49,056 bases of DNA from Minisyncoccota bacterium (GTDB lineage: Bacteria; Patescibacteriota; Minisyncoccia; Phycocordibacterales; UBA9973): assembly GCA_035438585.1 (NCBI GenBank), contig DAORIO010000001.1, positions 1 to 49,056 of the forward strand, given 5' to 3'. Both the position numbers and the translations under genes were made by a program. Positions within the stretch are counted from its first letter, which is position 1, and each line of letters opens with the position of its first letter. The notes beneath the pieces are model-generated. The model saw nothing but the letters and a program-made list of their open reading frames with translations, did no database searches and was not told where the DNA came from. Positions 34,374 through 35,342 of this stretch are shown in pieces.

Positions 34374-34680
34374 AGTTTTTATAAAAAAAGAAATGTCAGA
34401 AGTTTTGACATATAGATGGGGGAGAATACTAAAAATCTCTTTTTGGCTTCTTGTTTTTGGATTTTTGGCATCAGTAGTCTTATTTGTATATTTATACAAA
34501 ACATTTGAAAGACCGGTGCTTGTGGAAGAATCTGAAAAAACACTATTTTTGGACAAGGTTAAAATAAAAGAAGCTGAAAACTTTTATAAAGAGAACGACA
34601 ATTTGATCGAAGTCTTGAAACAGAATAAATCAGAAGCCATTGACCCGAGCGTCGTAAACAGTTATAGTTTGGTTCAGTAA
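34351..34680 (+). CDS. Small bitopic membrane protein, last gene of the pilM-N-O operon
   Basis: ORF track. An alternative ATG at 34393 avoids the overlap. TM helix ISFWLLVFGFLASVVLFVYLY. Confidence 0.4.
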   Translation: MKNMNKNKVFIKKEMSEVLTYRWGRILKISFWLLVFGFLASVVLFVYLYKTFERPVLVEESEKTLFLDKVKIKEAENFYKENDNLIEVLKQNKSEAIDPSVVNSYSLVQ

Positions 34681-34689
34681 AAGATAGTT

Positions 34690-34761
34690 GCCTCCGTAGT
34701 TCAATGGATAAAACGACTCCCTTCTAAGGAGTAGCTCTAGGTTCGATTCCTGGCGGGGGCA
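34690..34761 (+). tRNA. tRNA-Arg (anticodon UCU), no encoded CCA
   Basis: GCCTCCG/CGGGGGC acceptor, loop CTTCTAA, T arm CTAGG-TTCGATT-CCTGG. Confidence 0.9.
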
Positions 34762-34763
34762 CA

Positions 34764-34806
34764 AAACAAAAAACACTACTTAGATTATGAGTAGTGTTTT
34801 TTGTTT
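34764..34806 (+). terminator. 17-bp terminator hairpin after tRNA-Arg(UCU)
   Basis: AAACAAAAAACACTACT (34764-34780) / AGTAGTGTTTTTTGTTT (34790-34806). Confidence 0.7.
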
Positions 34807-34810
34807 ACTA

Positions 34811-34990
34811 TTTTGTCCCTGCCAGGAATCGAACCGAAGGCGCTAATTTTTAAGGAGCGAAGCGACTATAAAAATTAAGCGTTTCGACCGCAGGGAGAGG
34901 CGATTCCTGTACTGACCCTGTAAGGGTCGATATCCTGGCGGGGAAATTAAGCGTTTCGACCGTAGGGGGAAGCGATTCCTGGCCGGCAAT
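34811..34990 (+). ncRNA. tRNA-trailing structured element, variant copy (host tRNA-Arg UCU) with an internal 37-nt duplication
   Basis: TGTCCCTGCCAGGAATCGAACC (34814-34835) is a near reverse complement of the tRNA 3' end. A different long hairpin spans 34839-34881. The shared module is GTACTG + ACCCT-GTA-AGGGT + CGATATCCTGGCGGGG (34909-34943). A 37-nt direct repeat lies at 34873-34909 and 34945-34981 (3 mismatches). Each repeat unit ends in GCGATTCCTG. Confidence 0.65.
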
Positions 34991-35053
34991 CGTGACAAAA
35001 TAACACTTTATGATATAGTTCTTTGGTAATTACAGGTTGTAATTATATTGTGC

Positions 35054-35126
35054 GCGCGGTTAGCTCAGTTGGTAGAGCAGCGCTTTTACACAGCGAAGGT
35101 CAGGGGTTCAAATCCCTTACCGCGCA
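35054..35126 (+). tRNA. tRNA-Val (anticodon UAC), no encoded CCA
   Basis: GCGCGGT/ACCGCGC acceptor, loop TTTACAC, T arm AGGGG-TTCAAAT-CCCTT. Confidence 0.9.
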
Positions 35127-35265
35127 CATGAGCCATGCGAATGGCCGGTAGTGAGTGAACTGCTTCACTCACGTAGGATTTGAAGAGCTTTTCATTATTT
35201 ACGAAGAGCTCTGCTCTGAGAAAATTGAAAAGGTGTACTGAAGCTGTAAGCTTCTAATCCCTTAC
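35127..35265 (+). ncRNA. tRNA-trailing structured element, copy 4 (host tRNA-Val)
   Basis: Hairpin GCCAT-GCGA-ATGGC. Degenerate anti-acceptor CCGGTA. Hairpin GTGAGTGAA-CTGC-TTCACTCAC (35151-35172). GTAGGATTTGAA (35173-35184) is antisense to the T-arm with a 2-nt deletion. The core is GAGCTTTTCATTATTTACGAAGAGCTCTGCTCTGAGAAAATTGAAAAGG. GGTGTACTG follows, then P4 AAGCT-GTA-AGCTT. The sense copy AATCCCTTAC (35256-35265) is identical to 35111-35120. Confidence 0.75.
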
Positions 35266-35310
35266 AAATATTTGTGACCTAATCCCCATAAAACCTATTA
35301 AATAATAAGC

Positions 35311-35342
35311 AACAAAAAGACGCCTTAGGCGTCTTTTTGTTG
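35311..35342. terminator. Bidirectional terminator
   Basis: AGACGCC-TTA-GGCGTCT, flanked by A5 and T5. Confidence 0.8.

Follow-up and report, generated by a model that had tools for sequence, protein, structure and literature searches.

We observed that the stretch at 34811-34990 of the window (the whole 49,056-nt stretch of DNA that was analysed) belongs, as a composite copy, to a family of non-coding repeats that form hairpins and lie immediately after the tRNA and tmRNA genes of the ultra-small Patescibacteria. It lies directly 3' of a tRNA-Arg(UCU) gene on the same strand, carries antisense and sense copies of the tail of this gene, and has a covarying core that is shared with other copies. 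The family matches no Rfam model and no published description that we found, and the present copy is a composite variant of it. The build of the element is best explained as a type C element to which a type A 3' module and the sense copy of that module were added later, along with a duplicate of the 38 nt on the left; for this explanation as a whole, our confidence and our doubt are about evenly balanced.

The genome that holds the window (G000; 551 kb in 48 contigs, 34.7% G+C, 82% complete) has 31 tRNA genes, and about 20 of these, together with the tmRNA gene, carry trailers of the same design. First comes a tip hairpin, in most cases a bidirectional terminator; the host tail in antisense, a core, and one or more sense copies of the tail follow in this order. 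In the G000 trailers the antisense and sense parts match each host's own tail, and most sense copies extend to the discriminator and are then followed by a terminator. At least three core types could be told apart. The type A core reads AAGCTTTTC...GAAAAGG, followed by TRTACTG and then by a small GTA-loop hairpin, and the type B core reads ...CGAGNCGGGG...TTTCGTCAG...CTTGTGACC. The type C core was also seen in G000 behind tRNA-Cys and tRNA-Tyr. The antisense of the type A and type B frames is interrupted by a CUGC-loop hairpin, precisely at the complement of tRNA position 65/66 (where the acceptor and the T-stem meet), and this was the case for tRNA-Lys, Arg(GCG), Ser, Pro, Asp, Arg(CCU), Leu(CAA) and Ala, and for tmRNA.

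The tmRNA gene of G000 (RF00023, 121.7 bits; no ARAGORN call) has a type A trailer at C2:33326-33480 (L171 250-500, minus strand), with an antisense acceptor, a CUGC hairpin and a sense copy. The trailer of tRNA-Val(UAC), at 35128-35290 of the window, has a type A element, after which come the remains of a 3' end of type B (AAATATTTGTGACC) and one more sense copy. We also considered the antisense as a copy of the 5' strands of the tRNA. This was ruled out, since the antisense has CCAGG (the complement of the 3' strand) and not CTAGG at the T-stem G·U, and since the discriminator and the trailer are covered as well.

The host gene, tRNA-Arg(UCU), is at 34690-34762 (ARAGORN; Rfam tRNA, 61.5 bits) and, like all features of the locus given here, on the + strand. 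What the element copies is the tail of this gene, from G57 to its last nucleotide (34745-34762, GATTCCTGGCGGGGGCAC). A bidirectional intrinsic terminator follows at 34764-34806, a perfect 17-bp inverted repeat found by the terminator scan on both strands, and it forms the tip hairpin of a large palindrome of tail, terminator and antisense. The inverted-repeat search placed the 22-nt antisense copy of the tRNA 3' end, TGTCCCTGCCAGGAATCGAACC, at 34814-34835. It covers the acceptor 3' strand, the T-stem 3' strand and the T-loop, is degenerate in its acceptor part, and is contiguous, without the CUGC-loop hairpin. Together with the flanks, the antisense gives 32-nt arms with 81% complementarity to the tRNA tail. 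Next to it is the 66-nt type C core at 34836-34901 (covariance model R1, 107.6 bits; RNAalifold and pair counts on 26 copies). It consists of hairpin 1 (34839-34882), with an A/T-rich stem, the putative GGAG/CGAC tandem G·A motif and a mini-stem with a triloop, and hairpin 2 (34883-34899), with a CGAC/GGAG motif as in hairpin 1.

Downstream of the core, sequence repeats revealed sense copy 1 of the T-loop and T-stem 3' strand at 34902-34909 (GATTCCTG), which is shortened by the next module; its counterpart in the sister genome G001 is longer. This next module, found by a pattern scan at 34910-34927, is the 3' module of the type A core, TACTG followed by the 5-bp hairpin ACCCT-GTA-AGGGT with its GTA loop; a 27-mer identical to this region is present in genome G125. 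Sense copy 2 (CGATATCCTGGCGGGG, 34928-34943) holds the 3' part of the T-loop, the T-stem and the acceptor 3' strand with a 1-nt insertion, and it is the best partner of the antisense within the element. It is followed by a partial second C core at 34944-34973, made up of the 3' strand of hairpin 1 and hairpin 2 (the last 30 nt; nhmmer model positions 51-87, R3 positions 6-41). This partial core has three differences from the first copy, one of which breaks the tandem G·A motif. Sense copy 3 (GATTCCTGGCCGGC) is at 34974-34987. The right limit of the element is a promoter-like site of tRNA-Val, GTGACA-16-TATAGT, at 34992-35019 (promoter scan), which is kept in G001. The ORF listing had no ORF inside the element.

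The 38-nt direct repeat (34872-34909 and 34944-34981, 72-nt spacing, 35/38 identical) flanks the GTACTG-hairpin module. The initial annotation had given this internal duplication as 37 nt; the duplication is real, but its length is 38 nt. The rest of the layout agreed with that annotation, which had described the 17-bp terminator followed by an antisense with a degenerate acceptor part, the absence of a CUGC hairpin from this copy, the retention of the GTACTG + ACCCT-GTA-AGGGT module and three T-arm-like sense copies. It had also raised the concern that the shared module might be coincidental, and this could be rejected: the pattern TACNG-N5-GTA-N5 had a perfect 5-bp stem in 31 of its 121 matches, as against about one expected, and 30 of these 31, with at least 16 different stem sequences among the perfect stems, were in tRNA trailers.

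We further examined the type C core in other genomes. BLAST detected it in 36 of 121 genomes of the same family, and a covariance model in 54 of 151 genomes and 24 of 45 genera of that family. It was found behind at least 12 different tRNA species, which include tRNAs for Arg (four anticodons), Gln, Val, Leu, Lys, Asn, Ile, Tyr and Cys. In 41 Patescibacteria MAG contigs, wherever the fetched stretch holds a tRNA gene, the core is directly 3' of it and on the same strand. A pattern scan with one genome per species returned 47 stretches, and the module was present in 41, all of them from Patescibacteria MAGs (labelled as Nomurabacteria, Paceibacterota, Niyogibacteria, Wolfebacteria, Parcubacteria or 'Saccharibacteria'). 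The other six stretches were without the module, and five of these were in other phyla; by a rough estimate, six is about the number expected by chance.

The type C fold consists of two hairpins, both with the internal motif 5'-GGAG/5'-CGAC. We read this motif as a probable Watson-Crick pair, tandem G·A and Watson-Crick pair. A K-turn reading was ruled out, as a Watson-Crick pair lies between the tandem G·A and the asymmetric loop. In an alignment of 26 copies, 94.6% of the cells were paired, as compared with 84% in shuffles (0/500 reached this value), and 16 pairs had changed on both sides, with slid controls at 46-50%. The pair G19·U64 was kept in 25 of the 26 copies. The C cores of G000 and G001 are 95-96% identical, while the whole locus is 81% identical. 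The initial annotation had taken this hairpin for a different one replacing the core of this copy. The hairpin is indeed present, but as type C occurs in many genomes and covaries, it is a second widespread core type and not a one-off replacement.

In G001, which is of the same genus, the tRNA-Arg(UCU) gene is followed by an unrelated tip hairpin, an antisense, one C core and one sense copy, GATTCCTGGCGGGA. The 72-nt block 34910-34981 is absent there; it must therefore have been added or lost after the two species separated, and the locus has thus been rearranged since then. G001 also has a 1.2-kb two-ORF cassette between the sense copy of its C element and the tRNA-Val promoter (L002 368-1331, minus strand). 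Both ORFs of this cassette are of 139 aa; one is of unknown function, and the second has a signal-peptide-like start and a Lys/Glu-rich repetitive sequence. Among relatives, the spacer between tRNA-Arg(UCU) and tRNA-Val may be element-free (1, 12, 31 or 58 nt), or may hold a single C, a B-like core or A-like cores. These element-free spacers also contradict the idea of an ancient frame in which only the cores swap, an idea that we rejected as the whole story since the direct repeats include non-conserved trailer bases. As repeats can be mis-joined by short-read assemblers, the 38-nt duplication might have been an assembly artefact. This is extremely unlikely, since the repeat copies differ at 3/38 positions and bracket a unique module, and since the same architecture is present at tRNA-Tyr in G000 and in at least five independent assemblies; the comparison with G001 argues in the same direction.

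The architecture "full C, sense, X, sense, C 3' part, sense" recurs at a minimum of six further loci. The combination of a complete C core with a C 3' part downstream was seen at tRNA-Tyr in G000, at tRNA-Arg(GCG) in G115, at tRNA-Tyr in G087, in G085, at tRNA-Lys(CUU) in L159 and at tRNA-Asn in G094. In the tRNA-Tyr trailer of G000 the order is C, sense, A 3' part, sense, C 3' part, sense. In G087, a complete A unit (CUGC hairpin, antisense T-arm, A core and sense) lies between two C 3' parts, and behind the tRNA-Asn of G094 about 640 nt with a 173-aa ORF lie between the C 3' parts.

The trailers of G000 and G001 differ by discrete, module-sized indels in sequence that is otherwise about 97% identical. 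At tRNA-Gly, the B elements of the two genomes are about 97% identical except for a clean 96-nt nested insertion in G001 (L098 ~1640-1740), which places a hairpin, an A-like core and a small TATACAG hairpin inside the type B core and has a 12/13-nt direct repeat, GCGAAA(A)TTTTAT. At tRNA-Tyr the core has been swapped: in G001 the frame is of plain A type and its 27-nt CUGC hairpin is at 65/66, and in G000 the antisense is contiguous and is accompanied by a C core and by the A 3' part that is also present in G001 (36/37 identical). An additional B-like core is present at tRNA-Arg(GCG) in G001. At tRNA-Val and tRNA-Ala(GGC) the element is present in G000 only, and in G001 an ORF follows tRNA-Val. 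The terminators of tRNA-Pro have been exchanged, the second one of G000 being the first one of G001, directly after the tRNA. The post-sense terminator of tRNA-Pro reads …CAGCAGGAC…GTCCTGCTG… (G000 C6:21900-22190 versus L098), and the element around it is otherwise conserved. The G001 site and these other trailers of the two genomes support the initial proposal that the modules are shuffled and duplicated, as in a recombinationally active element rather than a static leader.

Separate models for the 5' and the 3' half of the C core were run on the same 151 genomes. The genomes compared are relatives, and the counts from them are therefore not independent. Full C cores numbered 53, lone 3' halves 23 (the right boundary being kept in 17), and lone 5' halves 12, of which seven were the tip hairpin alone, two were at contig ends and about three kept the left boundary. 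Inspection confirmed most of the lone 3' halves as terminal modules of composites. All C partials retain hairpin 2, and their start is in the 3' strand of hairpin 1 or close to it. The type A and type B partials are likewise 3' parts.

We also estimated the folding of the element. The + strand of the element folds with -72.4 kcal/mol (z = -4.1; 0/200 shuffles as good) and the - strand with -56 kcal/mol (z = -2.3). The duplex energies of the antisense were -44.3 kcal/mol with the tRNA tail, -32.4 with sense copy 2, -24.7 with sense copy 3 and -14.9 with sense copy 1. The tail, tip hairpin and antisense together form a near-symmetric palindrome that takes in non-conserved trailer bases. G·U pairs were absent from the stems of the CUGC hairpins (0/244 pairs in 26 distinct hairpins) and rare in the inner stems of type C (5/468 pairs), as compared with 38/667 pairs in the tRNA stems of this genome (Fisher p = 7e-6 and 2.5e-5, respectively); the A3' stems were left out of this comparison, as a loose regex took in unrelated sequences. 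Hairpin stems that are almost free of G·U point to DNA palindromes and not to RNA stems. Between congeneric copies we observed paired double substitutions, a G-C to A-T change in the tRNA-Pro hairpin and an A-T to G-C change in the tRNA-Cys mini-stem.

Profile searches of G000 (82% complete) found no reverse transcriptase of PF00078 (RVT_1), no Y1 transposase of PF01797 (Y1_Tnp) and no serine recombinase (Resolvase), and no integron integrase scored above the cut-off. The search for a cognate transposase covered the Y1/RAYT family PF01797. The sole tyrosine recombinase of G000 is Xer-like and is encoded on another contig. As G000 is 82% complete, a mobilising enzyme could be missed, or could act in trans from a phage. 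The promoter scan gave no promoter-like site before the element, and between it and the tRNA there is a strong terminator. In the Rfam search only tRNAs reached the gathering score at the locus, and the matches of an E-value scan of 34680-35340 were weak, stayed well under the gathering scores and fell mostly on tRNAs or on the terminator palindrome. No ribozyme, intron or riboswitch of Rfam matched at the locus. By eye, we observed no hammerhead core conserved across the type A copies and no group II domain V in the type B cores. A search of the literature turned up no account of this family. In metagenomes, the 109-aa ORF that lies upstream was used as the query and gave no close strains.

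Taken together, we consider it an even call that the family is a non-autonomous DNA repeat that is spread and reshuffled by copy-based template switching. Palindromic modules would be copied at the DNA level (and not cut and pasted) by polymerase template switching on a single-stranded, hairpin-forming template. In the steps that we infer, the nascent strand would fold back at the tip hairpin (the terminator or the ACGAAGT mini-hairpin) and produce the inverted tail copy; it would then switch into a donor core, and would return to the target via the near-universal T-loop sequence GGTTCGAWTCC, giving the direct tail copy. Incomplete copying would leave only 3' parts, and hairpin-templated correction would keep the stems perfectly Watson-Crick. 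The sister genome without the 72-nt block, the module-sized indels between G000 and G001, the recurrence of the architecture and the 3'-anchored partials are in favour of template switching, as are the G·U-poor stems, the paired double changes, the host-matched tails and the fact that no RVT_1, Y1_Tnp or Resolvase was found in the genome. However, the junction microhomologies at the locus are only 0-2 nt, the incompleteness of the genome allows for an unseen mobilising enzyme, and the tandem G·A and the near-invariant G·U at the base of hairpin 1 suggest one functional strand, perhaps with a binding partner. In addition, fold-back copying does not predict a CUGC hairpin exactly at 65/66, which selection for a tRNA-like shape would predict. 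In a single-stranded template the T-arm hairpin would have its base at 65/66, but the fold-back steps account neither for the siting of the CUGC hairpin there nor for the retention of the tandem G·A motifs in the cores. On a broader and tentative view, which we hold to be possible though not probable, the modules may be either enzyme-free mobile DNA, in which fold-back and T-loop switching rebuild the inverted and direct host tails and hairpins template the correction, or the attachment sites of an undescribed tRNA-anchored cassette system.

It is rather unlikely that the element acts as a functional structured RNA, in which the antisense and sense parts would pair into an acceptor/T-stem minihelix whose sequence is that of the tRNA next to it. 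Such an RNA might be processed by RNase P, RNase Z and the CCA-adding enzyme, its core hairpins might bind a partner, and the three sense copies might give alternative folds. The better folding of the + strand than of the - strand, the core covariation with G19·U64, the CUGC hairpin exactly at the acceptor/T-stem junction in at least eight frames, the fact that most sense copies reach the discriminator and have a terminator next to them, and the higher identity of the C cores than of the locus between G000 and G001 are all consistent with this. As the structure is conserved, the element may indeed have a function. Nevertheless, the lack of a promoter-like site ahead of it and the strong terminator after the tRNA speak against an RNA product, and an Rfam match is absent. 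The arms also decay differently in the sister genomes and are absent from many copies, and the stems are nearly G·U-free, unlike those of the tRNAs of the same genome.

Rivals that involve recombination or RNA intermediates were also weighed against template switching. We regard it as quite unlikely that the modules are att sites of a site-specific recombination, integron-like or exploiting Xer, with the core 3' part and the T-arm sense copy as an att arm and the 38-nt repeats as hybrid sites from the integration of a tiny circle. The bracketing of the ~640-nt cargo with its 173-aa ORF by C 3' part and sense behind the tRNA-Asn of G094, the 1.2-kb cassette right after the sense copy in G001, and the presence of a Xer-like recombinase would fit such sites, and a direct repeat that extends from the T-loop to the end of the tRNA is what T-loop integration classically leaves behind. 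But a fixed attP could not place one and the same core, with matching tails, behind 12 or more tRNA species, as is seen here, and the direct repeats range from 8 to 38 nt. The inverted tail copy is left unexplained, nested insertions occur where T-arm sequence is absent (as in the B core of the G001 tRNA-Gly), and an integron integrase and a serine recombinase were not found in G000. An RNA intermediate with target-primed reverse transcription and LINE-like 5' truncation is very improbable. It would account for the 3'-anchored partial cores that start inside a stable hairpin, and the sense copies could act as priming sites; however, no reverse transcriptase was found in G000, the elements are promoterless and lie behind terminators, and the G·U-free stems indicate DNA.

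We also compared the element with known systems. Like MITEs, REP/BIME and REPINs (the latter mobilised by the Y1 transposase RAYT), the elements are short, gene-less, multi-copy, hairpin-forming, near-perfect DNA palindromes that lie in intergenic positions after genes. Unlike MITEs and REPINs, their flanking repeats are copied from the target gene and so differ at each site, in place of constant terminal inverted repeats; they are tied to the 3' ends of tRNA and tmRNA genes in a fixed orientation, their direct repeats are of variable length, and no Y1 transposase was found in G000. In 2002, Williams reportedly defined sublocation classes of integrative elements in tRNA and tmRNA genes, among them insertion from the T-loop to the 3' end. 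With such tRNA-targeting elements and their integrase-less remnants the family shares a direct repeat from the T-loop to the tRNA end that flanks the insert, stacking, and occasional cargo genes, but it has no integrase, places one core behind many tRNAs with matched tails, carries an extra inverted tail copy, and has short inserts, of just 60-200 nt.

Integron attC sites and the folded single-stranded attP of the CTX phage also resemble the element, in that structure is conserved over sequence, one strand is seemingly folded, and non-Watson-Crick positions are conserved. The attC motifs RYYYAAC/GTTRRRY (R''/R') are, however, absent, the boundaries being ATCGAAC and GGC|GATTCC; IntI was not found, and the arms are tRNA-derived. 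Fold-back inversions, quasi-palindrome template switching and FoSTeS/MMBIR share with it a hairpin-centred inverted duplication, module-sized insertions with little or no microhomology, and paired 'compensatory' changes in both arms. Those are sporadic mutations, whereas the element is a recurrent, conserved design in many genomes, which points to drive or selection. Non-LTR retroelements that use target-primed reverse transcription likewise leave 5'-truncated copies with a common 3' end, but need a reverse transcriptase, which was not found in G000.

The host genomes are of about 0.55-0.8 Mb and have little spare DNA, yet about two-thirds of the tRNA genes of G000 are trailed by these elements. 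The locus and its sister counterpart demonstrate discrete, module-sized rearrangements between two species of one genus, and the 3'-anchored partials and G·U-free stems are new clues in favour of DNA copying over an RNA fold. If the template-switching mechanism is true, short DNA would spread by means of the replication machinery and the tRNA T-loop alone. The T-loop is, to our knowledge, the most conserved sequence in biology. The elements also confound the annotation of tRNA flanks, the prediction of terminators, and the detection of genomic islands by direct repeats of tRNA ends in CPR genomes.

Parts of the C element were also observed outside the usual frame. The tip of C hairpin 1, GATTTTTAAGGAGCGAAGCGACTATAAAAATC, is present alone at L035 1499-1534, L038 1499-1534 and L041 1501-1536, where it adjoins, on the opposite strand, the start codons of rpsT-like and pilC-like genes (by hand translation; other genomes). 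The covariance-model search gave 32-nt matches to this lone tip in many genomes. In L057 (G053:C26), three tandem 58-nt units at 318-480 have C-like hairpins 1 and 2 and are without T-arm-derived arms, and the 701-nt stretch that was fetched has no tRNA gene. The motif TGAACGAAGTGAA, with the mini-hairpin ACGAAGT, was seen at L129 ~2700-2750, in L018 and L053, and at G000 C26 ~330-345. In several C elements this motif is the tip of the palindrome in place of a terminator, and it is also inserted within the sense copy of the tRNA-Arg(CCU) element.
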